From assembly GCA_963575745.1 (NCBI GenBank), contig CAUYUJ010000270.1:1-64000 (forward strand): 64,000 bases of DNA, read 5' to 3'. The translations under genes and the position numbers were made by a program. Origin of the DNA: Prorocentrum cordatum. Lineage: Eukaryota. Below, piece by piece: positions 4,383-38,315 of this stretch. The notes under the pieces are model-generated. The model had not been told where the DNA came from. It saw nothing but the letters and a program-made list of their open reading frames with translations, and ran no database searches. The first letter of the stretch is position 1, and every line of letters begins with the position of its first letter.

Positions 4383-5300
4383 TCCTAGAGCCCTCTCGGG
4401 GCCCTCCTGGGGCCCTCTTGGGGCCCCCGCGGTAGATCATCTGAAACGGCCGCTTCAGATGCTCTACTGCGGCGGGCGCTCGAGGCTCTCTTGGCCCCCC
4501 CCCGGGACTTGTCTCGGCGCCTCTGGGGCCCTCCTGGAGCGCTCTTGGGGCCCTTTCTGGCGCCCCTGGAGTTTCGGGGCCCTTCTGGCACCCTCCAAGG
4601 GAACCCGTGGTAGAGCGTCTGAAATACCAGCGTCAGATGCTCTATCGCGGGCGTGGTTCTTAGGGCGCCCCGCGCCCCCCCGAAACTCATCTTGCGGTTG
4701 TCTAGAGCCTTCCTGGAGCGATCTCGGGGCGCTTTTCGTCTCTCCTGGAGCCCTCTCGGGGACCTCCTGGCGCCGTCGCGGGGGTCCGCGGTAGAGAATC
4801 TGAGATTGCTGTTTCAAATGCTCTACCGCGGGGGCCTTGTCGGGGCGTCTTGCGCCCCCAAAGGGTTGTCTCGGGGCCCCGAGGGCCCTCCTCGTGCCAT
4901 GTCGGGGCGCTCTCGGGCCTTCCTGGAACCCTCTCGGGGCCATCTTGACATTGTCATGGGGCCCCCGCGGTGGAGCATCTAAAACGGCAGTTTCAAATGC
5001 CCTACCGCGGGGAGGGGCTGTCGGGGCCCTCTTGGGCCCCCCAAGGGCTTGCCTTGGAGCTCCTGGCGCCCTCCTCGAACGCTCTCGGCCCCCCCCATGT
5101 TTCGCCTCTGGTGACCTCTCGGGGCTCTCCTGGCACCCGCCAGTGCGCCCCTCGGAAGACCATCTCAAACGATTGTGTCAAATGCTCTACCGCGGCGGGG
5201 GGCTCTTGGAGCGTCTTGCGCCCCCCAGGGCTAGTCTTGGGGTCTCGGGGGCAACGCGGCGCTCTCGCAGAACACCCGAGGGCGTTTTTGAAGCGTTCCT
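4383..5300. repeat. ~180-bp degenerate tandem array, each unit with a ~46-bp hairpin (CCGCGGTAGAGCATCTGAA..TTCAGATGCTCTACCGCGG)
   Basis: Hairpins at about 4427, 4605, 4786, 4965 and 5149. A related copy lies at about 13120-13700. Confidence 0.85.
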
Positions 5301-11500: not shown

Positions 11501-12004
11501 GGAATTATGGTTTGGGCCCTCTTGGAGCCAAAATGGGGCCCTCTGGGGGCCCTCCTGGGCCCTCTTGCCACCCGGCGGGGGACCTCTTGAAGCCCTCGTG
11601 GGCCTTCTTGGAGCTCTCTCGGGGCCAGCAGACGGAGGGGTCCAACTTGGCCACTCTTGGGGCTCTATTCTTGGCACTATGGGGGTCCTCTCGGAGCCTG
11701 AGCGGTTGCCTCCTTGAGGGCACTGGAGCCCAGGGACTGTACTTTCCTCGGGTCCGCGACATCATTTAGCGCACTCTGTGTCCCCAGCGCTCTTGTAACG
11801 AATCTTTGGCGGAAGCTAGTCGCAGACAAACGAAATTGTTACGTGAGGCCGCCTGCAGCCCAGAGCGCTGATAAGACAAAGCTTATCTATGAAATGATAA
11901 GTACATGTCTCGCAGCCCCCAGGGGCCCGAACTTCAACCACCCTCTTGGCGCCATCTTGGAGCACTCTTTGGGCCCTCTTGGCGTCCACGGAGCCCGCTG
12001 TGCC

Positions 12005-12625
12005 GAGAGCCACCGCCAGCCATTGTCAACAGTTGTCGCAAGCAACGCCGCCGAAATCGCCGCCGAAATTGCCGCCGAAATTGCCGCCGAAATCGCCGCC
12101 GAAATCGCCGCCGAAATCGCCGCCGAAATTGCCGCCGAAATCGCCGCCGAAATCGCCACCGAAATCGCCGCCGAAATCGCCGCCGAAATGGCCGCCGAAA
12201 TCGCCGCCGAAATTGCCGCCGAAATTCCAGATTGCGCCGCCGAAAAGAGGCTGTACTTGACCCTGGCGTTGACGTTGCGCCTGTGCGTGCGGGGTTGCCA
12301 CGCTTACCAAAACAGCGATTTCCCTTGAGAGTGGACAATGGAAATTTCGGTGGAAGAATTTCGGCGGTGATTTCGGCGGCAATTTCAGCGGCTATTTCGG
12401 CGGACCTCGTGCAAATTTCGGCGGCGATTTCGGCGGCTATTTCGGCTGCGATTTCGGCGGCGATTTCGGCGGCGATTTCGGCGGCGATTTCGGCGGCTAT
12501 TTCGGCGGCAATTTCGGCGGCAATTTCGGCGGCAATTTCGGCGGCAATTTCGGCGGCGATTTCGGCGGCCACTTCGGAGATCTTGCTCTTGACAGCTGTC
12601 GGTCAATGTTGCGGGGAGCTCCCAT
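12005..12625. mobile_element. Foldback-type element: two inverted arrays of a 12-bp unit (GCCGCCGAAATC) around a ~100-bp spacer
   Basis: Array at 12046-12245 and its reverse complement at about 12340-12578. The outer flanks are also inverted: cattgtcaacagttgtcgcaagcaa versus revcomp cattgaccgacagctgtcaagagcaa. Confidence 0.7.
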
Positions 12626-13119
12626 CACTCCGCGGTGGTACGGGGTCGATGCGTCGGGCACGCCCGCGCGGGCCTTCAAGGTTGCACGGTCGCTAATGGG
12701 CTTGTCTCGCGGCCCAAGTAGCACGATAGACAACCCACGATGCGACATACATAGGAAAGTGAGGTCGACAACCATCGAGGACTTCCGAAAGCGGAAATCA
12801 TCGAAGATCGAACGGTTCACACGTTGTCAGAAATCAAGGCTCGGGCGTGAGTTTCCCAAAGGATGAGTGGGAGGGGAGAAGGCGGAAGGGAGGGAGTTAG
12901 GGACGGACTTGGTATGTAGAGGGCTGGGAAGGAGTGGATGGACGTTCTTGGGCCTCTCAGGGGCCTCTTTGATAAGCATACCGGGCCCTCTTAGGGCCAT
13001 CCTTGAGACATGGGGCGTGATACAGGGGGCTCCTTGGGGGGCTTCATGGTCCCCCCCGGGGGTCGCCTTGGGGCCTCCGAAATTCCCTTGGGGCCCTGTC
13101 GGGGGGCTCCCGAACACCC

Positions 13120-13700
13120 ATGAAACCCTTTTGGGGCCATGCTGGCGCCCTCCAGGGGCCCCCGCGGTAGAGCAGCTAAAACGGCCGTTTCAGATGCTCT
13201 ACCGCGGAGGGCTCTTGGGGCTCTCTCGGGCCCCCTCAAGGCTTGTGTTGGGGTCTCCGGGACTCTCCTGGAGCGCTCTAGTGGCGGCTCTTGGGGCCCC
13301 CTGGAACCCTTTTGGGGCCATCCTGGCGCCGTCCAAGGGCCCCCGCGGTAGATCATCTGGAACGGCAGTTTCAGATGCTCTACCGCGGGGGGGGAGGGGG
13401 CAGCATGGGCCCCCCATGGATTGTTTTGGAGTCTCCTTGACCTTTTTCGGAATCCCCTTGAAGCCCTCAGGGGCCGCCTTGGAGCTTTCTTGAGCAATGT
13501 GACCAACACTTGGAACGTCTGCCTGGGCTTATCGAGTTCATTGAATGCGATAAGACCCGAGGTTTCAACACCGCAGAGACTTTGCTGGAATATTATTGTG
13601 AAGTCTTCGGGGCCCTCTTTGAATTCAAAACTCCCGCTTGGGTCACAAGACATCCCAAGAAAGCTCCGAAGGGACCCGAAGGTCCAAGTCCTTCCCCCTA
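13120..13700. repeat. Second, diverged copy of the 4383-5300 hairpin-array repeat family
   Basis: Same hairpin at about 13162 and 13343 (~180-bp spacing) and a similar downstream segment (ttcttgagcaa...). Confidence 0.75.
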
Positions 13701-14735
13701 CATGGGGCTCCAAAGAGAAATCCAAGACGGCCCGGAAGAGGGCTCGAAAACGGCATCGGAAAAAGGGCCAGACGACCCAACAGCGCCACACTACGTCAAA
13801 GACAGCGCCAGGATGTTTCAAGAGGGCCTCAGGAGGCCCCCAGGGAAATCCAAAGGACCCGACCAGAGCCCCAAAGCAGCCCCAAGACGGCACAAGAGAG
13901 ACCTTCCCCTGTGTTCCCCACGTAGTTACCCTCACGGCCGCAGGAGCACGCAGTCCAGCAAAGCGACCATTCCTGGGGCCGCGCCTTCCCAGCGAGGGCG
14001 TGGACCCCGCCCTCAGCACCGAAAGCATCATCACCTCTTCTTCCTCACAGTCCTCCCTCCCGCCTTCCAATTTGTCGGCCTTGCCCCCGCCATGGCCCCA
14101 ACCGTCAAATCCACTACAAGGGCGAATAGGGCAGGGAGGAAGATGAGAGAAATGAAGAGGAGCAGGAGCGACGACCAAGGTGAGCAAGAAAGGGGGGAAG
14201 GAGGAGAGGCAGAGGAGAGCACCGCACGAAGCGCATGCCAAATCGCGAGCGGTGAGCGGCCCAATACTGAAGAATTCGCCTGTTCGGGTCGGTTTTGCGG
14301 GCCGGCTGCCCCCTCCGAGGGTCCACATCGAATCGCGCCCCCTCGGCCCCCGCGAGCGCCCACGGCACTGACCAAAGACAGCGGGGGCAAAACAATTCCA
14401 GGAGAAACGCCGGCGACCGAGGGACAGGATGCCAATCGCCCGCGCGGCGCTAGGCGGTAGAAAGGCCTCCCCCGTGGAGTCGGAATGTGGTGCCCCCCGA
14501 GACGAACAACCAGCAAAGCGAAGCCGTGTGTGTGGCCACGTCCGCAGAGCGGCCGCCTCTCTTAGATATGTAAGCGGACCGCTCTCGCCAAACCAACCTG
14601 ATCATTAGTGCACCGCTGCCGCCACAGCTGTCGCCAGAGGGACCCCTGTCGCTTCCACCGGCTGCCGCATGGGCGACGCGAGCGGCACTGAACCTGGAGA
14701 TTTTCTTTGCGGGCGCAGCGAAGAACGGCGATCAA

Positions 14736-17700
14736 TCATTCCTGGGTTCCACGAGGCCTCCAACGCCTCATCTCCAGAATCCTGGCACATGTATCGCTGT
14801 CGATGGGCACGCTCATGGCCCAATCAACCCACTCCGGGTCCTCGGTGTATGAGTCCAACTGCTCACGGGTATAAACATGTTCCAGATCGCTACCGGCCTC
14901 CAGCCAAAGTCGATACAAAAAATTGCCACGACGCACCCATCCTCTGGCGAGCTGAACAGCGGCATGCTCAGTATATCTAGTAAATTTGAAAGAGTACTTC
15001 CGTTGAAAGCCAAATCGGACGCACCACCTCTCCGCCAGCGCGCGGTTCAAGCAAGCCGCGCAATCTGTCGGCACCCCAAGGTTGGCTTCCGTCCAGGCGC
15101 CCCCAGGGATCTTCAAATAGAAGAACTCCTCGTCACCATCAGCCCCCTCGTAAAGATCCCTTTTCTCCTGGACGGCCTCCCACACGGCCTCGGCGTCGAC
15201 CTCAGCAGCATCGTCGCCAGCAGGCTCGTCGGCCTCGGCGGGGCCACCGCCGCGGGCGTTGGCGGGCCCCCGCCGGTGGCCATGTTGACGACGCCGTTCC
15301 TGGATCATGTCGGCCAACTCCTCCCTAGAGAGCCAGGGGAACTCTTCCGCGAGACGGTCGACAACGGCAACTGCGATGCGGGCATGCCTCGCCTCCTGTG
15401 GCGCCCTCTCTCGGAGCTGATTGGCCCAGGGTGCCACGTACTCGTCGAACTCCTGAAACTCCGAATGGACGACGAGGCGGCTGCCTTGCCAGACCACCTG
15501 CACGACGCCGAAACGAACGCCATCTCGGCATAGACAGGGGACGGCATGAGCTGCCACATAATTCATGTCGTGCCTGTAGGCAACGAAACCAAACTGCGAT
15601 CGGATGTCATCTACAGGCAAGACGCCTACGGCAGGGCAAGCGTCGTCCCGCGTTAGCTCTAATAACTGGACGCCGAGGGGTTGCTGGGAGCAGACAGTGA
15701 CATACCATATACAAACTGGGAGCTCCTCCAAACTCTCTGCGGCATCTGGAATGGGCACCAAGGCGGCGCCGACAAACCTGTCCCGACCGCCTGCGACCAC
15801 GGGCACCCACCACGGGAGCTGGGCGGGACGCCTAACGAAAGTCTTCGCCTTGTCCTCGATCGCCCGTTGCAACTCCGGGTCTGGCGCCACGGGGGCCCTG
15901 GCGGATCGTTCGCAGATGTCGTGCACGAGAGCTGATTTCGACCGCATGTCGTGGAAATTCGTGGTCATGCGTTCCAGCGCCTCTTCCGTGAACGTCATGG
16001 CCGAGAGCTTGTTCGGGTGGGAACTAGTGACGATGGCAGGGCCATCGCATGGGGGTTCCAAGTCCGCTTCTCGCCTCTTGCGGACCAGCTCGCCGAGATC
16101 GGCCTCCAATGTCGCCGCGAGCTGATCGCGCTCCTGCACCCGTCGATGTTTCTCTGCCTCTGCCGCGCGCCCAAACACGAGCTTTCTCCGCGACTGGCAA
16201 AGACGCGTATCGGGCGGAGTGCTCGGCGATGCATCTCTTGCGAACACGGAGAGCAGCCGGAGTTGAGGCGTCCATCCCCACGCATGCCTCGCGGATCAAC
16301 TCGCGGCAATACTCCTGAAAGACGGGGCCCCGACCGAAGAAATCGTCGGCAATTGGCAAATTCCGAGCCCGCTGACGCGAACGCGCCCCCGTCGCTACCC
16401 TACGTTTGCGGGGGGGGGGGGGGGGGGGGGGGGGGCAGGCAGGGTGGAAGGAGGCATCCTGGTCGGGGCGGAGGGTCGGACCAACCAGGCGGCACGGACG
16501 CGGGCGGAGCAGGGGGGAGAGGTCAGAGGCGGCCAACGAGCGGTTGGGCGGGCCGACGGAGCACTCCACGCAGGGCGGAGGCGAGGGCGAAGGCGCTTGG
16601 GGCGCGGGGAGGCATTCATTTCAAGAGGCAGAGGCCGAGGCAAGCATGCAAACCGAAGGCGGGCAAAGCCTCGGCTACGGGGAGGCAGGCAAATACAAAG
16701 GCGCGGGAGGGCGAGGGCACGGGATGTCGCTCCCAGGGACTGGCCCTGTTTGCGACTTCTTACTAACGATCTGTTCGGCGGGGCCCCAGTCCTGCAGTCC
16801 GGAATACAACGTGGGCCTCCCTCGCAACGCCTCGATGCGAGCCCTGAGAGCCATCTCTTTGGCTAGTCCTCTTGGCTGGGCAAAACACGGGGCAGCCTGA
16901 GCCAACAAAGCCCGGTGGCCCAGCACGCTGGCGCCAATTCGATTGTGATATTGTTTCACAATCGCGCCTGCGCCATGAGCCTTCTCGACTAAGCACGTCG
17001 TGCAAGGGGACTCGCGCAACAGCGCCAGGGAGCGGGCCACGACCGCCACGGGGAGAAGTCCCGAATCCAAGCATCGGCGGATTTTCAAGCTACTCGTGTC
17101 CAGGTCCGCTGCGGGGGCGGCACCCAATGCGTCCAACTGCGCGCGGATGTTGCCCTGGGTCAGACACAACGGGAATTGCTCGAGATGGCAAAACGCATGT
17201 TTCCACAAGTAACCGTTCATGTTGTGCACTGCCTGCAAGGTGAGGCCCCGCAAGGTGGGGCCAGATTCGCCTGCGAGCTGGCCAAGGGCGCTCCACGTAT
17301 CGAGGTGCAAAGATTCAACCCATGTGGTTTTATCTCTGCATAAACGCTTGAGTTCAGCGCCGCGCTTGAGGAATCTGTCGTCCTGCATGACTTCCAAGTT
17401 GAATGCCTCACAAGGTTGCGCGGCCACAGCGGCCACGACGAGATATCGCAGATGGGGCCTGCCAATATTGGAGAAACCGCCCAAATGATATGTGCACAAG
17501 CCATCCCGCTTGTACACTAAATCAACCAAAACGGGCAAGCCAACGCACATCGATCCGAGAAACAGCCGGCATGACGGCCCAACGCCAGCCCACCTCGTCT
17601 CCGAAAAAGATTTCCACCGGAGGAAGTACATGATGGTTGACGCCAAAATGCCGCGCCAGTCCCGGTGGCCCCCCAATCTCTGCGAAACACGAAGGATGGA

Positions 17701-18585
17701 AGCTTGTTGGTCGAATCGTGGATCTACTAGCATGACATCCTCCATCAGTGTCTCCGGCACCCCCATCACCTCCCAGAACTCCTGGCGACGAGCCAACTGT
17801 TCGGGAGGGTCTTCGAACACCACGTGGGCAGAACACACAAACTGGAAGACAACTTGGAAAAGCTCGTTGGATGTATCACGGCAAGATTTAATGCCGATGT
17901 GGATGTCATCCAGGAGTTGTTTTGTGCTGACCTCCGACATCCCCCACGATATCGCGCTGCTTGCAACGTGCGCGATGCACCTCATGCCAAAGAACCAATC
18001 GCTTAATCGTAAAGGATGGTGTGGATCAGTTGACACGGAGGGGTCGTCCAGGGCGTCATAGAACAAGTCGCAGCGCGCCTCCATCCTGCGAGACATGCCA
18101 GCGAAGTGCAGGCCGTCTTGAAGAACAAACGTGATAACAACACCGTCGTGGACGTGTTGGCGGAGTGTCTCCTCGTGGTCTACAGCTGCCTGGAGCATGT
18201 GCCATCCGGTTTTGCCCTGCCCGAGCCCTCTCGGGGCCTCGAACCGCATGGCTGATCGAATCTCCCCGCTGGGAGAGATGGTCTTTACGATGCTTTTTTC
18301 GAGGAGGAACTCGGCGCGTACGCGCCCAGTTCGCCTCAGAACGTGCTCACCCAACAACGCTGTTTTCGAGTCTGATATCTTGCACCCCCATCCGTCCGAC
18401 ATGTACGTCATAAGGACGGGCCACTTGGACATGCGAGCTACCTGGAATAGTCGATGCACCTGTTCCTCGGTCTCCTGTTTGAGCACGCTGCACGCTACCC
18501 AGGCGTCGCGTCGGTCGCTCTTGCAGTGCATAGCGGACGGCCTCGCGAGACGCCTGACGACATCAGAGATGCACTCTGGCTCCAT
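14736..18585 (-). pseudogene. Divergent hAT-like DDE transposase (~1120 aa) with C-terminal HMG-like and AP2-like segments; one intron, one +1 frameshift
   Basis: hAT-ordered motifs: YMSDGW (D-x-W), VLQDG, CIAH (CxxH), SETRW, TTCLVEKAHG (position of the catalytic E). Exon 1 is 18585-16792 and exon 2 is 16314-14736. There is an extra A at about 16183-16185 (GAGAAAGCTC versus in-frame GAGAAGCTC). Confidence 0.7.
16315..16791 (-). mobile_element. Introner-like intron (GA..AG, 477 bp) with terminal inverted repeats, inside the transposase
   Basis: 5' GACTGGGGCCCCGCCGAACAGATCGT versus revcomp of the 3' end GACGGGGCCCCGACCGAAGAAATCGT. CAGGA is duplicated at both junctions. Removal gives YSGLQ|EYCREL in frame. 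Confidence 0.75.
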
Positions 18586-21559
18586 CAGCGTTGGTCCGAA
18601 GAGACAAACAACAGACAAGAGAGAGAACAAAAGAGGAGGATGCGGGCGCCCTCGAGCCGAAAGGGCAACGGAAAGAAGATGGCGAGAATGACGCTGATAC
18701 CAATACGAACCCTGGCATTAGGAAACGAACGCAATTAGATCAGGAATGCTTATGGGAGCTCAGCTGACCCCTCGTTTATCGAAATGGGGCGAGGCGGGCT
18801 TGGGCGCCCTGGGGACAGCCAGCGGGGCGCGACCTCGGCTTCACGACACTCCCTGGTACCTGCGAGGCTGCGCGGTTGCGTGCCCCCCAACCCTCAACTC
18901 CCGAGCACCAAACAAAAAGCACCGCGAACGCAACATCGAAGAGACTCGGACGCCTGAGGGGTCCTGGAGTGGCTAGACGCTCAGCATCCAAAGTACATCG
19001 ATGCGGAGACGCCAGCAGCAGCCCGAAACCACAGCTCTTCGTTGGGCTTACGCGTTCGCACTGGGATGATGCTGGGGGTGGGGGTGGGGTAAAAACAATA
19101 GCAGCAGCAACCACCGCAGAAGCAGCCAGGGGACTCGGGACGCCTGGACCAGGAAGGGTCGGACCAAGAGAAACCACGCGGGAAGGAGACGCGAGGGGGC
19201 AAGAGCGCAGAGAGCCTGCTGAGCTCGAGTAGGAGAGAGAAGAGGAGGAACAGCAGCAAGGGCAATGGCAGCGCACGCAACACTACATAGCGAGCCCGGC
19301 GACCCTCGCCACATGAAGGCTCCGCTGCACTTTTCTCGGGGGCCAGAGGCCCGCCCGTCGACGAGGGTCCCCCTCCAAGGAGGGGCAAGGGAGAGTGCCG
19401 CCGCGGGCGAGCAAGGGCTGACGACATCCTGAATTCGTCCATGTATCGCCCCCCCCCGCCTCATTCCTCGACTTTTCCCGCCCTCCTCGGTTCATGGCTG
19501 CTGAAAAAAATCGTTCGGAGCGGGGTGTCCTGTCAAATTCGCGCCGCGCTCTGGTTGTTTGGGTTTCTCGTGTTCTTGATAAGTCATGGGTTTTCGAAAC
19601 ATCCCTCGGAATGACCCCCATGGGCAGCTACCTCGGAGTGCCGTGTATCCGATTTGGGGGGCAAACGCAAGTTTTTGTTTTCCGCATCTCGGTCTGAATG
19701 CACTGTGGGCCCTTGATGCGTGCTTTGGGCGTTGTCGCATCATGCGGCCTGCCCTGGAGGGGGCCCCCCGTCCTCTGCGCCTCCGCTGCCTCCTTGCCCC
19801 TCCCTCTTCCAGTCGTTTTCGCCCACCCCTTTCAGCACCCCCCAACGCCATTCCTGCTCCCCCATGGACCCCCGTGCCCCGACCCCTTGGACCGAACGCC
19901 TGCCTGGCCCCCCGCCCGCCCCACGCAGCGAGAACATTGAGGAGAGGAGGAGCTAGAAGGGTTGCAGGGCGAATAGAACGAGCAATGGACGAAAACAACG
20001 AGGAGGAGGAGGAGGATCATATTTTCCATTGAGGAACCCAGCGCTGCGCATGCTCTCTGACAAGCACAACGCCGCCCATGACCTTCCCCGCGCATGAGCA
20101 GAAACTCTCTGTTCACTTTCGCCTTTGGGACGGCCATGCGGCGGTGCCGACGGGCGCGGGCGAGCCATCGCAGAGGAACGCCGAATCAAACTCCAGCGCG
20201 CTCGCTGGGCCCCGCTCCCCGTCGGTGTTCCAGCCGGAGCGCGCCCGCCGCGGCAGGGCGCAAGGTTCTGCCGCGCGAGCGGGGTGATGCGCCAAAACCT
20301 TGACATCGGCGCGCCAGCGCCAGCTCCCCGCGCAAACGCCAGCCGAGACCCCGCAGCACGACGACAACCCACCCCCTACAGCAGGGCCATAACCCTGCCG
20401 ACACAGAACGAACGGCGCCTCTATCCCCCACGCGCGAACGCTTGCAAGCGCGCGCAAGCTCGATACTGATCAGGGCGCTGACCCAGCCCATGCGCAAGTT
20501 GATGAAACAGTGCCCGCATCAAGGTGTCGGCCTAGGGCTGACACCTGGGCGCCGCCCCTGCTCCTACGGCAAGGCAACGATTCAACAACGCATGCCAAAG
20601 CGGCGACCCCGACCTTGCAACCCGGCGCTTGCAGTCCCCGCAACGGGGTGTCAGCCCAAACGCTGCGCCGAGGCGCCGAAACAATCCGCACGGCGGCGCG
20701 CGACGCCCATCCCCAATCACCAGAGCGCCACCCGAAGCACTGCAGAAAAACACCAGCCTGGCCCGCGCAGCAAAAAGCCAACGCAATCAAATTCGCACGC
20801 CGCGTGGACCTCGCCCACAAGCACATGCGAACAAGCTCGCGGAACGGGCCACTTGCGCGTGATAGCATGCGTAATGTGAGAAGTGAGCGGCGCGTACTCT
20901 GTGAAGTTAAATGCACTCTAGCATGTACTAGCCAAACCACCGCACGGCAATGCGCGCCTGCACAACGAAGTAAGCAAACAAAAACTGAAAAACAACGCAA
21001 TTTCGTTTGGAATGGATTTCGGCGCGCTCCCCTTTTCGTCTCCAAAGGAAAGGCCACTATGAAAACGGCAGTTGTGCAGTGGGAGGAGGAGGAAAAGTAG
21101 GCAGGAGAGGTCCGCCTCACCTCCCTCCTCTTCCTCCTCCCCCTTCGTCGTCCGCCTCCTCCTGCTCTTCCTGCTGATGCTCTTCCTCTTCCTCGTTCAA
21201 CAAGCTGCGGCTCTCTATCCGCTTCGCACCGAACGTTTTCGAAGCATGATTTTTTGCCCCCGGGTTTCTTTCAATCTCTTTCGTCAAGAGCTCTGGGTTA
21301 GTTGGATTTGGAGACAACGGAATTCGCCACCCAGCCCGACCGCTGGAATGGCCGAGACAACAAACCCCGCGCGCAGCGTTCCACCAATGAGGGGGGAGCA
21401 AACGCGTAAGGTTTCGGTGGGGATCGCTCGAAGCAAAATATATGTTTCCATACGCGGTCCTGCAATCCCGACCCTTTCCGCGGGACCAGCTTGTCACTCT
21501 GAGTCGTCTTGTTGACGGTCCCGGGGCCGACCTGATACCTTTTGCCCCACGCCAGCAGG

Positions 21560-23851
21560 TCTGGGGCTGATGCCCTCCGAGCACCCACTGGCAGTCGGGC
21601 GCCAGCCCGGCCACGCGCAGCGGCTCCAGCGAGAGGCCCTGCGCCCGCGCGGCCTCGAGGGGCACCAGCGCGCGCGCCTCCTCGGCCCTCTCGCGCGAGC
21701 AAACGGGCCCGTGGACGCCGAGGCCGTTGCGGAGACGGGAGGCATCGAAGCCCTGGAGCTCGAGCTCCGCGACCCGCACGAGCGAGCCGGCCTGCAGGCG
21801 CTGGACCCTGCGCCTGTGGACCTCGGAGTGCCGGACGTGCCGATCGACCTCGTTCGTGAGGATGCTCCTGCGCAGAAGGCGTCTGTACGCCACAGGCTCT
21901 GGCCAGGGCCACGCTGGGCCCTTGCATGGTGCATGCCCCTCCTGGCCGAGCCCGGAGGGTCTGTCTATACACAATCGTGGGGCCCAGGATGGCCCTCGCC
22001 AGGCATGGCGGCGGTGTATAGATGCCGTCTGCGGAGCTCCAGCTCTTGCTGCACAAAGAACAGACGAAATCGCGGGCGCGCACCTGAATGAATTCGTCGC
22101 CCGGCTCGGACAGCGCCACTATGCGACGGATCGTCTCCAATGGCAGCCGCGGCAGCACGCCCGCGGGGCCAGGCCGACTGCGGACCCGCATATATCCCAG
22201 CACCATTACCACCGCATACCTCCGCTCGAAGTAAGGGTTGATGTGATCGCAGCCCGCGCATACCCGCGGCAGCGCCTTCGACCTCTCCGCTTGCGATTGA
22301 GAGAACGCCTCCCTGGGCTTCGGCAGCCCGCAACGCACGCAGAGCAGCGTCTCCGCGGTGCAGACCCGGCATCGGCGCTGCCCACGTGGGCGCATCATCT
22401 GGCTCTTAGCGAACCCGCTCAGCGGCAGCTCCGACCCGCAGCCGCTGCACGGCTGCGCCACGCAATCGTTGCACCGCCGCACCAAGTGGGCGGCAGCCGT
22501 GTCCTCCGCAACGCTGACCGTCGCGGACTTGCGGAACTGGTACCGACCGAACATGTTGAGCGGCAGCGTGCGCCCGCAGGCGCCGCAGAGGTACGTCCTC
22601 GTGCCACCGAAGTCCCGGCTGCCCGCCGCCCCAAGCCGCGCCCCGCAGCCCCGCACCGTGTCGTCGTCGGCCCCGTCGCGCCCTGAAATGGCAGGGAGAG
22701 CTCTATGAACTGCGCCTGTTCCCCTCCCCCCCCGGCCCTGCCGGCTGCAGCTAGACGCGCGATGTGCGGTTAAATTTGCGCCCTCGAGCTCCGGGAAAAT
22801 GAGAGGAGTTCTGGAGGGACGGAGGGAGAGGGCAGGGGGGAGGAGCGCACGCTTGTCCTCAAGCCCTCGAATCGCGCACCTCCCCTACCCCTCAAGAAAG
22901 TACGGTGCACAGAATTTCCTGGTGCCGGCCTAGGCTGCCGTCGCCGCCCTGAGGCAACGGCGCCGCGCCAGCGGAGGTGACGGGCGGCGGCGCGAACCCC
23001 TGGGCCTGGCCGCCAACTGCGGCGCGGGCACTGGCTCTGGCTGGCCCCGCGGGGGCAGGGGGCTCCACGACAGAGGGCGCCGTCGTCCCTGTGGACTGGT
23101 CCAAGAAGCCGTACAGGTGCACCAGGGGGCAGCTGCAGAAGCCAGCCCGCCCTGCTTGGGCGCACAGCGTCTTGGAGCAGCCCCCGTCCTGCATCAGGCA
23201 CCACCGCAGCGAGCCCGCCGCGGCCTCCTCCAGCAGCTCCTCCGGCCGCGCGATGCCGCAATTGCCCAGGCGCAGGTACACCGGCGCGTGGCGCCGCTGC
23301 CGCCGGACCCACATCGGGTACTGGGGCAGGCCCACGAAGCTGAGCAACAGACCAATCACCGCCTCCCGCTCGCGGAAGGCGTTGTTGGTCAGGTGCACCT
23401 CGCGCAACTGCCCCGGGTACGACCTCGCGAAACCAGCCAGCGCAACCAGCGCCGCATCCGTGAGCAGGTTGAAGTGTGCCTTCAGCACCAGTGGACAATC
23501 CAGACCCAGCTTGGACCAGGCCCTCAGGATGGAGCGAAACCCTGCGTCCGATACGGCGTTGTGCGAGAGGTCAACGTCCGCCTGGCGGATCGAATAGCCG
23601 CTGGCTATGTGGGCGCGAACGCGCCGGGAACACGCTGCGGACCACTGGCGCGCCGCCGCGTCGTCGAGGCCACAGCCAGCCAGCCGTGCCACGAGGTGCC
23701 CGGTCGCCGCATGGATCGTGGTACGGCGCTCTGCCTCATCCAAGGCTGCACGCGGATCTGCCTCCCGATCCTCGGCGTCGCGGTCGCGGTCGCCGTGACG
23801 GCAGTCGGCGCCGCCTGCTGGGGTCACGGCCTCGGCCCCAGCGGCCGCCAT
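21560..23851 (-). CDS. LRR (RNI-like) + three Stc1-like Cys4 zinc fingers + matrin-like C2H2 protein; at least 3 exons (23851-22948, 22682-22040, 21867 onward); 3' end uncertain
   Basis: LRR-like: VDLSHNAVSDAG, LKAHFNLLTD, EVHLTNNAF, LRLGNCGI. Three CxxC..P...F...Q..CxxC repeats. FVCSLCSKSW|SILTNEVDRHVRHSEVH. Introns are GC..AG and GA..AG; the first donor is one of several possible sites. Confidence 0.75.
21868..22039 (-). mobile_element. Introner-like intron (GA..AG, 172 bp) with terminal inverted repeats
   Basis: After GAG, the 5' sequence CTCCGCAGACGGCATCTATACACC matches the revcomp 3' end CTGCGCAGAAGGCGTCTGTACGCC. GGAGC is duplicated at the junctions. Confidence 0.75.
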
Positions 23852-33559: not shown

Positions 33560-36500
33560 GAGAGAATAACACAGCCGCCTGTTTACTCCAGGCAGAAACC
33601 ACCGCACGGCGGCGACGACTCGTAACTCTGAGGCGAGCTTCAAAGCGTTGCTGGCAAGTGCCTGGGATGCCCTGACGGCGACAGTTATGAAGAGCAACCA
33701 AGGCATCAACACAAGCGGCATAGCACATTGGAAGACATTGATGATGGTGAAAGCATGAGGAAGGGAAGGGGCCAGGGCGAACCCTCAGGAAACCAGGGCG
33801 AGGAGATAAATAGAGGTCCAAGCCAATATCTGAACAGAAGCCAACCGAGGACAACATACAGAGTGTTCAACGCTATCAAGATCACCCTCACCAAGTGCTG
33901 GGCATCCCCGGGCACAACCTGCAGGGCTATATTTATATCGCTTGGTGGCGCAGAGACCGCGGCGCAGGATGCGCATGGCTCCCACGAGCATATACGGCTG
34001 AGTTTTCAGGTGCACGAAATACGAGTTAATCCAGAACCGATCCATGCTGCGCGGTGAAATCTCTGGGAACCATGCTGCAACTCGACGAAAGAGCGTCCGA
34101 CGAGGGCCCTCGTTGGAAGGGGGGCCCTCGACCATCAGCTCGTAAAGGCGAGCTTGAAGACGCGGCAGATCTACGCTCGCACGTGATGGGATAGCGTAAT
34201 ACCATTCATACAGACTGTGCATAGAACAGAGGAAACCCGGCTTCCAGTAGCCTCCTCTCATCCTGACAAAGACATGCTCTGGATGATCCTCAAGAGACCG
34301 AAGATGCTCAAAAACAGCGCCTATCCCATCATTCTTAATCAAATATCGGATACACGTCGCTTTGGCCAGGCACAGCAGATCTTGAAACCCGACGGGCAGG
34401 TGAAGCCTGCGCAACTGCGCGCAGAAAGAGTCAGAGAAAGACTTGCGAGGCCCTGCCGCGTCACTCTGAACACCGCTGCTGCTCTCGTAAGCCCCAGGCC
34501 AAGCTGACGAATGATGCCTGCACGGGGCCTGAATTTCCGGAGGGCCTCCGACCACGCGTGACGGTGAGCCTGCGGGCCTATGAAGGCCCCGAGACACTTC
34601 TCGCTGTCGACAACCTGAAGCAACCTGTAGTCACCCTGCAGAGCAGCAGTCGAACCGCGCATCAGGCCTAGCCCGAGGTTGCCTCTGATGAGCACCTGGC
34701 ATTCCTTAAAGTTCAAGGCGAGTCCAGCAATCGGTTCGAGAGGCTGAAGGGTTCGAAGAACAGGGCCCAGGGACGAGGAAACACGCAGAAGCCCAAAGCA
34801 AAAATCATCAGCATACGCAAGCGTACGATCGATATGACTGCTGCCTTTCGCCTTGACCCGCCTGAGTAGCGGACCCACCGCCTGCGCGAAAGGGGGCGTG
34901 CTGGACGGACACCCTTGCTTGACCCCAGAGCCCATGATCATCTTCCCGAACCGCCTTCCTCCCAGCACCACAGTGGCAGTCTGCTCCTGATAGAGCAGCA
35001 TGAAGAAAGAGACGACGGCAGAGCTGATCCCCATCTCGCTCAGCACGCGCAACAGCCAAGGAATCGCCAGCGACGGAAACGCTGCGCAGAAATCGGTGAG
35101 CAATAGGCAAGCTTGCTCATTCGCCAAGACATGTTGTTCTAGAGACCAAGCCTCTGCGTCGACGATGTAAGCGATCATGCCCCGATGCTTTAAACGCTTC
35201 TGGTCAGGGGAAACAATCTTCGAAACATTTTCCCCCAATGGAATAGATGCGGCCCCAGCGAGAATCTTGATGTCCGTGTTTGACATACCTAGAGTACGTG
35301 TTTCTTTGGGGCCTCTGGAGACCTCAGGACCACTGTCACGAACATCAGAACCTTTAGGGGGGACAACCATGAGGCTGTGACGCATGTCAGGCGGCAGAGA
35401 CTCGATATTCACATTAAAGAGACAGAGATAAATCTCATAAAGAGCGCGCGCGGCAGACGGCGCCGACCAAGCTCCATACGGGGCGCCGTCTGGTCCGGGC
35501 ATGCCAAAAAAACTGCGCATAAGTAAGCTGCCAAACTTCAGAGAGCAGCTCTGGGACCTTCTGGATGCGCGCAGACACCTCAGGCCACAGAGACCTGTCT
35601 AGAGCCTTCGGAGAGAAAACCTCGGACCAGTAATCCTGGGGAACCTGAGCAGACTCTTCCAGGGAGGGGCATGGACTACCATCAGCATCGCACACACGTC
35701 ATATGCGTACGACTCCGAAAGCGCCTCCAAAGCTCCGGATACCTCTAAACCCTGGCCTGGTTGTTTTTCTTCGTCTTGGGGTCCGCCTCAGAGTTTTCAA
35801 TTTCCATGTTCTCCTGGTCACGCAGCTGCATCTGGACGCACCGAGTGAGAGCACACAGGCCAGCGACGTTCGTGCACCTAAGGTTCGTCATGTCGAAATT
35901 CAGGCCAAGGGTAGGATAAGCCTTAAGCGCATCCACGATCATCCGATCCCTCCCAAAACTCCACCCTCTCAGCGCATGCATGGCCCAGTGATGCTTCAGC
36001 TCTAACGTGGTAGCTGGGATCGTATTGGTATACTCCCGAACGTGCTTCATGGTGACGAACATGCATGACTTAATCGTACTAAGACGCCCCAAGACAGATA
36101 AATGCAGGCAATCGTGATCTAGTTCGGCAATGAGCTGCCCTAGGTTGATCAGGATGCTTACATATATGCTTGGGGCTCGTGGGGAACTCAGCAGACGGGC
36201 AGAAGGGGGGGAACAGAGCAAATATCGGGATGTGGTCGCTCGGAGACTTAGGCATGGGCTTGCCAATCACCCCGCTGCGGATATCATAATCTCTCAGAAT
36301 GGCCTGCGGCAGGGGCGCATGCATTCTGTCCAACCGAGAAGTGCGGACGACGATGCCGCCACGAAGCTCCCCCCCGCGCGACGCATTCCTGAAACGCAAG
36401 CAACCGTTGGAAACAATATGTGATAGAAGCGCGAATGAGGGCGGCCACCACATAACCATCCACTGCCGTCGCCCTTCATCCCCCCCCTCCTCCTCTAAAG

Positions 36501-37140: not shown

Positions 37141-38264
37141 TCAGCGCCTAGAGGACTGCCGGAGCTGGATGGCGGCGGCCTCGCGGAAGGCCTCAGCGTG
37201 CCGGTGGATCCCGAACTCCCTGGGGGCATCGAGCTCGAGCTCCATCTCGATCTTGTGCCCGTCGTCCGCCGTGCGCAGCTGCGCGAGCGAAACTGGGTCG
37301 TCCTTCCTCCTTAAGGTGTAGGTGCAGCCACCGAGCCCGTTGCTGAACACGTCATATCCACGGGGCTTGATCAAATCCGCCATCGCGGCCCTGACCTTGC
37401 CCATAGAAGAAATAATTGGCGATGTGTGGTGCCCGCATCACGGCGAACACGAAGTGCCAGTGGCGAGCTTGAAAGTGGATCAGGATACTGAATCGTAATC
37501 GATGAATGGCGCTCCGTAGGTGCGAACCTCTGGCGAACAGCTTCGCCAACTGCACGTAAGGTAGTGGCAAGCACCCGCCGTGGAAATCCAAGGATGAGCA
37601 GCTTCGTGGCGTTGTCCTGGCTCTTCTCCGTGGCCGCGGTGCGCTCGCTGATGCTCGAGCGAACATCCCAGGGCGGCCGAGAAAGCTTGTCTAGCTTCTC
37701 CTCAATGTATTTAGTCTTCTCCTGAACTGATGAAGGGATCGACGACGTCGCGTCCGTCATGTCAATCGAGGTCGGCGTCGGCGTGCTCAGGCGCTCGCAA
37801 GCTGCAGCCTCGAAGCCGTCCATCCGTTCCTTCAGGGCCGTGAACGCGGCCGCGTGCTCTCCCTCAATGTGCACCATGCGCGAGTGAATGTCGTTGCCCA
37901 TCGTGTGAATCGAGGATGTGAGCTGGTCGCATCGGAGCTGCGTCAAGCCCATCTGGTTCTTAATCTTGGCGAGATCGTTCACTGAAACCGATACCTGACG
38001 AGAAAGACCCTGCAGCGAAGACATAATCATATCAAAGTTGGAATCCTGGCTTGTCTGACTAGGACGGCACCTCTCACGCTCAGAACGACTCTTCGATCGG
38101 GATGAGCAGAAGGAAAAACTGCGGCCATCGGGCGATCGCGGCACTCGCGGGCTGCGACGGCGCTCTCCATGCTCTCGCATCTGGGCGGCTGTGTACTGGG
38201 AGGTAGGGAAAAGGACGGATATGTGCAGAAAGTCACCTCGAGCCTCCCCGTCGGCAGCGACCAC
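37141..38264 (-). pseudogene. LINE ORF1 (RS-rich, coiled coil, RRM-like KLLILGFP), frameshifted near the C-terminus
   Basis: ORFs 37371-38264 and 37141-37404 lie directly upstream of ORF2. Confidence 0.7.
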
Positions 38265-38293
38265 GTTTCAAACCCCAGGGCACAGGTTTGAGT

Positions 38294-38315
38294 CTTGAGC
38301 CAAAATGGTTACGGA
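38294..38315 (-). other. Dinoflagellate spliced-leader (DinoSL) sequence
   Basis: Minus strand TCCGTAACCATTTTGGCTCAAG versus DCCGTAGCCATTTTGGCTCAAG, one mismatch. Confidence 0.92.

Follow-up and report, generated by a model that had tools for sequence, protein, structure and literature searches.

Transposases of the Hermes/hAT type, which include Ac, Tol2, and Buster, are described by a set of named core motifs (D, D, E, C/DxxH, and RW). HMGB1 bends DNA and acts in trans as a cofactor of RAG1/2 and of Sleeping Beauty. AP2 domains reportedly occur on mobile-element enzymes, namely, HNH homing endonucleases and the N-terminal domains of lambda/Tn916-type integrases, as Balaji et al. are said to have described in 2005. 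Here we analyze a gene on the minus strand (positions 14736 to 18585) of a stretch of 64,000 nucleotides from the dinoflagellate Prorocentrum cordatum (contig CAUYUJ010000270.1; "the window" below means this whole stretch). On balance, we favor reading the locus as one gene for a Hermes/hAT-type DDE transposase of ~1123 amino acids (aa) with an HMG box, an AP2-like domain, and no BED finger.

Compared with Hermes and other hAT transposases, the protein is distinct in several respects. It is ~11% identical to Hermes, matches no Pfam hAT model, lacks the BED finger, and carries ~525 extra C-terminal residues that comprise the HMG box, a long helix, a domain without a recognized fold, and the AP2-like domain. 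Terminal inverted repeats (TIRs) and an 8-bp target site duplication (TSD) were not found in a scan of the flanks of this gene. The core is hAT-like by structure and lies outside all curated hAT sequence models. The domain architecture was not found in print; a full-text literature search (dinoflagellate/Symbiodinium, hAT, HMG box, and AP2), with Repbase and subscription journals outside its scope, returned no description of such a protein.

Gene structure and putative catalytic core

Three open frames cover the locus on the minus strand, at 16675-18717 (680 aa), 16024-16620 (containing EYCREL..EHSARYASLPVAEK), and 14736-16295 (519 aa). The closest relative, a protein of 1121 aa (P0001), aligned with the window in three collinear tblastn pieces: residues 3-600 at 18576-16786 (58% identity), residues 585-645 at 16344-16174, and residues 645-1119 at 16175-14751 (46% identity). 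Because this collinear alignment spans all three frames, they form a single gene, and unbroken homologues of 1100-1150 aa match it over its entire length. The gene runs from an ATG at 18585 to a stop codon at 14738-14736, with one intron and a 1-base frame break. Exon 1 (16792-18585; 598 aa) encodes the Hermes/hAT-like DDE transposase core, and exon 2 (14739-16314), directly followed by the stop codon, contributes 525 aa after removal of one base, so that the corrected product has 598 + 525 = 1123 aa. An earlier reading of the letters of this stretch (the original prediction) had joined two frames into one protein of ~1120 aa by removing an intron and one base. P0001 bears this out from end to end, and the full-length homologues, rather than showing the frames as separate genes, cover both.

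The predicted intron (16315-16791; 477 nucleotides [nt], GA..AG, 69% G+C) gives a protein exactly collinear with P0001 and the other homologues. The frame would also be kept if splicing started at a canonical donor, GTTAGT at 16767 (16767-16315, GTTAGT..TTTCAG), but the product would gain 8 aa, and these extra residues are absent from every aligned homologue. GA and GC donors are reported for dinoflagellates (PMC12584245). Since the host is a dinoflagellate, where GA donors have been reported, we favor the GA donor (16791), which we judge to be roughly twice as likely as the GT donor (16767). The intron also contains a run of ~30 C on the minus strand (16400-16452), at which short-read contigs break.

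The model of exon 1, folded with 104 relatives (predicted local distance difference test [pLDDT], 96; predicted template modeling score [pTM], 0.91), shows an RNase-H-like DDE core into which, as in Hermes, a large domain made up entirely of helices is inserted. In a Foldseek search of the Protein Data Bank (PDB), Hermes occupied ranks 1-11 (E, 1.3e-4 to 2.3e-3; probability, 1.00), followed by the P element and ISCth4, and the model aligned to Hermes up to residue 609. The original prediction had expected such a fold from a structure check. The P element/THAP9, ISCth4 (IS256/MULE-like), Transib/RAG1, and Tn5 were clearly weaker matches to the core than Hermes, and neither the P element GTP-binding insertion nor THAP or RAG-specific domains were seen in this protein. 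Language-model searches of the ESM Atlas with exon 1 gave only weak leads to hAT clusters (scores, 0.82-0.83).

The D, D, E, CxxH, and RW positions stand in hAT order in the exon 1 model and in an alignment of 105 rows. They were placed by the secondary-structure order of the model, not by residue-by-residue superposition on D180/D248/E572 of Hermes. The putative first catalytic aspartate, to which we assign this role from motif order, is D64 (codon 18394-18396, in MSDGWG at 18402-18385), on strand beta1 (model strand 57-78); the putative second is D157 (18115-18117, LQDG, in LQDGLH at 18123-18106), at the end of beta4 after strand 150-156. Both are D in 105/105 relatives. The motif C203-x-x-H206 (CIAH; 17968-17979) comes right after beta5 (strand 196-202, then helix 204-215), with C and H each present in 104/105 rows. 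In the insertion domain, R331-W332 (17590-17595, in SETRWAG at 17604-17584) takes the hAT-type RW position, R being found in all 105 rows and W in 92 (F in 12). The putative catalytic glutamate, E534 (16984-16986, LVEKAHG, in LVEKAHGAG at 16992-16966), lies on the helix that follows the insertion domain (531-546) and is E in 104/105, the remaining row having a gap. D402, in a DDR motif, is invariant as well (105/105 aligned rows). By analogy with hAT cut-and-paste transposition, D64, D157, and E534 would hold two metal ions for two-metal catalysis, and the CxxH and RW positions may aid the formation of hairpins on the flanking DNA.

All motifs quoted in the original prediction (SDGW, QDG, CIAH, TRW, VEKAHG, YSGLQEYCREL.., and GGAWT..) were located in the window, and the hAT order that it gave to the N-terminal ones agrees with the RNase-H-like model and with their near invariance in the 105 rows. 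It was also right about the BED finger. Pfam gave no zf-BED match in the window frames, in the 17 members of our family profile A1 (15 full-length relatives and two pieces of the window), or in 89 relatives, and the N-terminal 55 residues form two helices, at which the proteins of most relatives begin.

The C-terminal extension

The C-terminal model was built on residues 589-1121 of P0001 with 88 further rows (pLDDT, 84; pTM, 0.52) and consists of several well-predicted domains connected by disordered linkers. According to this model, the ~76 aa that follow the core are an HMG box, with the L-shaped three-helix fold of ~70-75 residues; in a comparison with 48,161 chains, ranks 1-26 were all HMG boxes. 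The domain begins 10 codons before the end of exon 1 (16821-16792) and so spans the exon junction; its main part lies at 16115-16314 (minus strand). Its third helix, at whose start the frame break sits, extends into a long helix (~46 residues) that ends near 16055. Matches to Pfam HMG_box/HMG_box_2 (PF00505/PF09011) remained below threshold in 9/89 relatives (1/45 and 8/44), always at this region. The best was in P0082 (E, 1.6e-4; 22.5 bits versus a cutoff of 25.4), and the window's own frames gave no Pfam HMG match. A sequence search of the PDB with profile A3 placed NHP6A (E, 0.075), HMGB1 (E, 0.16), the Plasmodium HMG protein PfHMG (E, 0.31), and Maelstrom (E, 1.8) within profile positions 587-662. 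The fold ranks and the colocated Pfam matches uphold the HMG-box-like C-terminal pattern that had been claimed.

This arrangement recalls HMGB1 with RAG, which likewise combines an HMG box with a DDE recombinase, and HMGB1 chains of RAG complexes (5zdz_N and 6oem_N) were among the subthreshold sequence matches. The difference is that here the HMG box lies within the transposase polypeptide, right after the core. Adjoining the core, it probably bends or binds DNA, either the ends or the target, much as HMGB1 acts in trans for RAG. The long helix after the HMG box may drive oligomerization and multimer assembly.

The C-terminal domain (FFYLKIPGGAWT .. RKYSFKFTRYTEHAAVQLARGWVRRGN; 14864-15167, minus strand) contains the motifs GGAWT (within 15125-15090) and RKYSFKFTRYTEHAAVQLARGW (within 15002-14919). 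The last ~130 residues of the P0001 model are predicted with a pLDDT of ~95 and show three short strands (408-411, 428-433, and 449-453), separated by two short helices, and then a long helix at 459-482. Among the 48,161 chains, the best fold matches of this region were in Toxoplasma mitoribosome structures. Chains Xn and Yn are mL143 and mS130, both designated "AP2 containing" (PMC11742926, supplement file 5), and four AP2 proteins are reported in the ribosome of 9G6K (PMC11652630). Chain UG of 9G6K may be one of these, and the aligned ranges may correspond to the AP2 domains themselves. The AP2 pattern W..(K)SF...YG...A..LA fits the domain. Pfam AP2 (PF00847) appeared in 2/89 relatives, below its gathering score (P0021, residues 1001-1032, E of 0.42; P0067, residues 1011-1037, E of 2.6), both times at the expected site. 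Foldseek with the C-terminal model returned nothing from the PDB at an E value of ≤1e-3 (top rows, Bet v1/START-like chains with a probability of ~0.1) and nothing meaningful from a viral structure library, and the C-terminal 134 aa had no usable match in the ESM Atlas.

An AP2-type fold is what the model somewhat favors for this domain. The AP2-like C terminus of the original prediction is thereby tentatively supported by fold matches and sequence pattern, but not by a PF00847 match at the gathering score. With ApiAP2/AP2-ERF proteins, including mL143 and mS130, the domain shares its best fold matches and the colocated weak Pfam matches. It differs from them in a sequence that falls below every threshold, in the two extra interstrand helices of the model, and in being joined to a transposase instead of a transcription factor or ribosomal protein. 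In AP2-bearing HNH endonucleases and integrases, an AP2-type DNA-binding module is likewise carried by a mobile-element enzyme, but those HNH nucleases and tyrosine recombinases are mostly bacterial or from phages, whereas the partner here is a eukaryotic DDE transposase. Taking over the part of the BED finger, the AP2-like domain probably binds particular DNA sequences, for example, at the ends of a transposon.

Between the long helix and the AP2-like domain lie a conserved middle region with a PWW..R motif and a beta-rich domain of no recognized fold (15470-15815, minus strand) and a conserved EFPWLSxEEL motif (15315-15344, minus strand), in which P925 and L927 are nearly invariant. The motif is followed by a low-complexity linker, and pLDDT is low at model positions 351-376.

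Family, mobility, and state of the copy

When the first frame served as the query of a word-indexed search of proteins, 26 relatives were found, many of 1088-1156 aa and on contigs of ~4-6 kb. Profile A1, run on 1.84 billion representative proteins, recovered 7,696 clusters (at 50% identity) at E values of ≤1e-3, 4,978 at ≤1e-10, and 1,851 at ≤1e-30. Of the best 150 representatives, 96 had at least 1000 aa and 92 fell at 1050-1210 aa; all but two of the 96 (94/96) begin with M. Length is uniform in the family (~1100 aa), and all domains and catalytic residues are retained down to ~20-25% identity. Every member that was looked up was named only "hypothetical protein." The family is very large, with cluster counts that chance would by no means give; it has no Pfam name and comes from marine plankton.

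Five real relatives were found on related metagenome contigs, one of which (L002) has an intact frame of 1107 aa. Three others (L001, L003, and L005) are mutually 95-98% identical and come from different assemblies. Two further candidates (L006 and L007) were disregarded as relatives; they showed 27% identity over 60 residues, on contigs of 73-76% G+C. Upstream of L001:896 and L005:339, inside the coding region (about residue 49), the two contigs diverge completely, which may reflect an intron, truncation at the 5' end, or chimerism of a contig. The spliced-leader core motif occurred in 0/7 related loci.

On the simplest reading, the family consists of the transposases of a lineage of DNA transposons that expanded in dinoflagellates. 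The grounds for this are the fold, the catalytic residues, which are strictly kept, and the great diversity of the family. Several observations weigh against this reading. By sequence, no Pfam family reached its cutoff, and no hAT model (Dimer_Tnp_hAT and related) appeared even at an E value of ≤10, in the window's three frames, the 17 A1 members, or the 89 relatives; the full-length profile found no transposase in the PDB, and the first profile found two chance-level rows only. The C-terminal model has a pTM of 0.52 and represents P0001, which shares 46-47% identity with the window in this part, instead of the window's own protein; the intron is predicted, with an ambiguous donor; and the assembled window does contain a frameshift. 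In the flanks (12000-14736 and 18586-21500), a search for inverted termini of 12 bases accompanied by a duplication of 8 bp gave 1 weak candidate, and the 5 shuffles gave 1-4. The strongest inverted similarity of one flank to the other had an E value of 1.6. No flanking inverted repeats were seen in the three related contigs L001, L002, and L005, and there is no second copy of the gene within the 64-kb window.

These last points bear on the possibility that the family is domesticated, that is, that a dinoflagellate host gene family arose from a hAT-like transposase and now acts at fixed loci, without moving, as a nuclease, recombinase, or DNA-binding regulator. RAG1, Kat1, and the ZBED/DAYSLEEPER genes are examples of domesticated transposases. 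We regard this as a real though tentative possibility. The lack of TIRs or a TSD at this copy and in three related contigs, the single copy in the window, the spliceosomal-type intron, and the uniform length of ~1100 aa with domains and catalytic residues kept to ~20-25% identity would all fit a host function, and HMG and AP2-like domains are usual in chromatin and transcription proteins. However, 7,696 clusters at 50% identity are a diversity more typical of mobile elements than of one host function, with the limit that dinoflagellate gene families are large too and that the library pools many species. Retention of D/D/E is compatible with both readings, and introns also occur in transposase genes, as in Ac and the P element. 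A domesticated family accommodates most of the facts on which the transposon case is built, and mobility is the weakest point of that case.

A second alternative, that the frameshift is real in the source strain and the locus a decaying pseudogene of the family, depends on the frame break at 16175-16176 (minus strand). The break is present in the assembled window, and one base fewer in two public DNA data sets restores the frame. A contig of run X1 lacks 16175, has C>G at 16176, and reads ..AEKARLGRAAEAEK..; in metagenome run X2, from a different study, the contig ends at 16174, and its loose end carries the X1 variant. The in-frame version reads ..PVAEKARLGRAAEAEK.. and equals P0001 in length there. 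The original prediction was correct that one extra base breaks the frame; it had placed it as an extra A at 16183-16185, and the X1 and X2 contigs put the change at 16175/16176. Contigs of X1, a DNA run, contain 88% of the sampled words of the locus, and X1 is possibly, though not necessarily, the source sample. Four more differences separate it from the window, so that it may represent another strain or haplotype, which leaves room for a dead copy. On the other side, two independent DNA data sets have the in-frame version, the sole X1 difference within the coding sequence of exon 1 leaves the amino acid unchanged, and apart from the single break, both frames are open across 1123 codons that align to P0001 without other defects. 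Most likely, the break stems from an error in the assembly or from variation between strains, and for this reason the gene is probably intact; we consider a dead copy very unlikely.

Two other features of these data sets concern the same gene. X2 has T>C at 17132 and so encodes G in place of D485, a residue of the insertion domain. One X1 record (record 3) runs from 17704 to 16453, continues with 2 letters, and then has 30 bases equal to 15785-15756; the junction may be a graph artifact at the k-1 overlap or a copy without 667 bases, and the start of the record is adapter-like.

Two distinct genes, or chance frames in G+C-rich DNA, are virtually excluded: spurious long frames are frequent in the window (60% G+C), such as a 536-aa frame at 12991-14601 that matches no family, but full-length homologues have both frames in one protein, and the idea is already refuted.

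Surroundings of the gene and implications

Just downstream of the gene, dispersed repeat copies at 13117-13436 and 4384-5250 are 74-84% identical to each other, partly in both orientations. Two oppositely oriented arrays of a 12-base tandem unit (12000-12230 and 12357-12628) make up a long imperfect inverted repeat, whose arms reach 215 nt with 85-95% complementarity. A 528-aa frame at 21298-22884 (minus strand) has a Stc1 domain above the Pfam cutoff (PF12898; E, 1.9e-7; 32 bits versus 24.8). Farther away, at 38315-38294 (minus strand), 21/22 positions match what we take to be the consensus of the dinoflagellate spliced leader, just upstream of a 298-aa frame (37371-38267, minus strand). The 16-base spliced-leader core has one match at ≤2 mismatches, and such a match also arose in 3/100 shuffles. 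From its sequence, the site (38294-38315) appears to be the remnant of a trans-spliced mRNA that was retroposed, which points to a dinoflagellate host. Close by, a frame at 34339-35598 (minus strand) has a near-threshold RVT_1 match (E, 9.2e-7; 29.2 bits versus 29.6).

Under the favored reading as a transposase, thousands of 50%-identity clusters without a Pfam name make up a family whose Hermes-like core is predicted with confidence. A large "dark" block of dinoflagellate and ocean-plankton genes would thereby gain a name and a function that can be tested. The built-in HMG box would show that a helper for DNA bending, supplied by the host in the case of RAG and some transposases, can become part of the enzyme itself. 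A bolder proposal is that the locus is the founding example of a superfamily-level, hAT-related cut-and-paste lineage, massively expanded in dinoflagellates and abundant in ocean plankton, in which the BED finger was swapped for an HMG box and an AP2 domain, and that this lineage was a mobile reservoir for the DNA-binding domain of myzozoan ApiAP2 factors and of AP2-type mitoribosomal proteins, or the reverse. We think this unlikely.

Dinoflagellates and Apicomplexa are sister groups. Should the AP2 assignment be right, an AP2 domain is present on a eukaryotic transposase of the dinoflagellate side, and the old idea that ApiAP2 factors originated from mobile elements would become testable by phylogeny. 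If the elements are active, they would be relevant to the genome dynamics of dinoflagellates, including coral symbionts and bloom formers.

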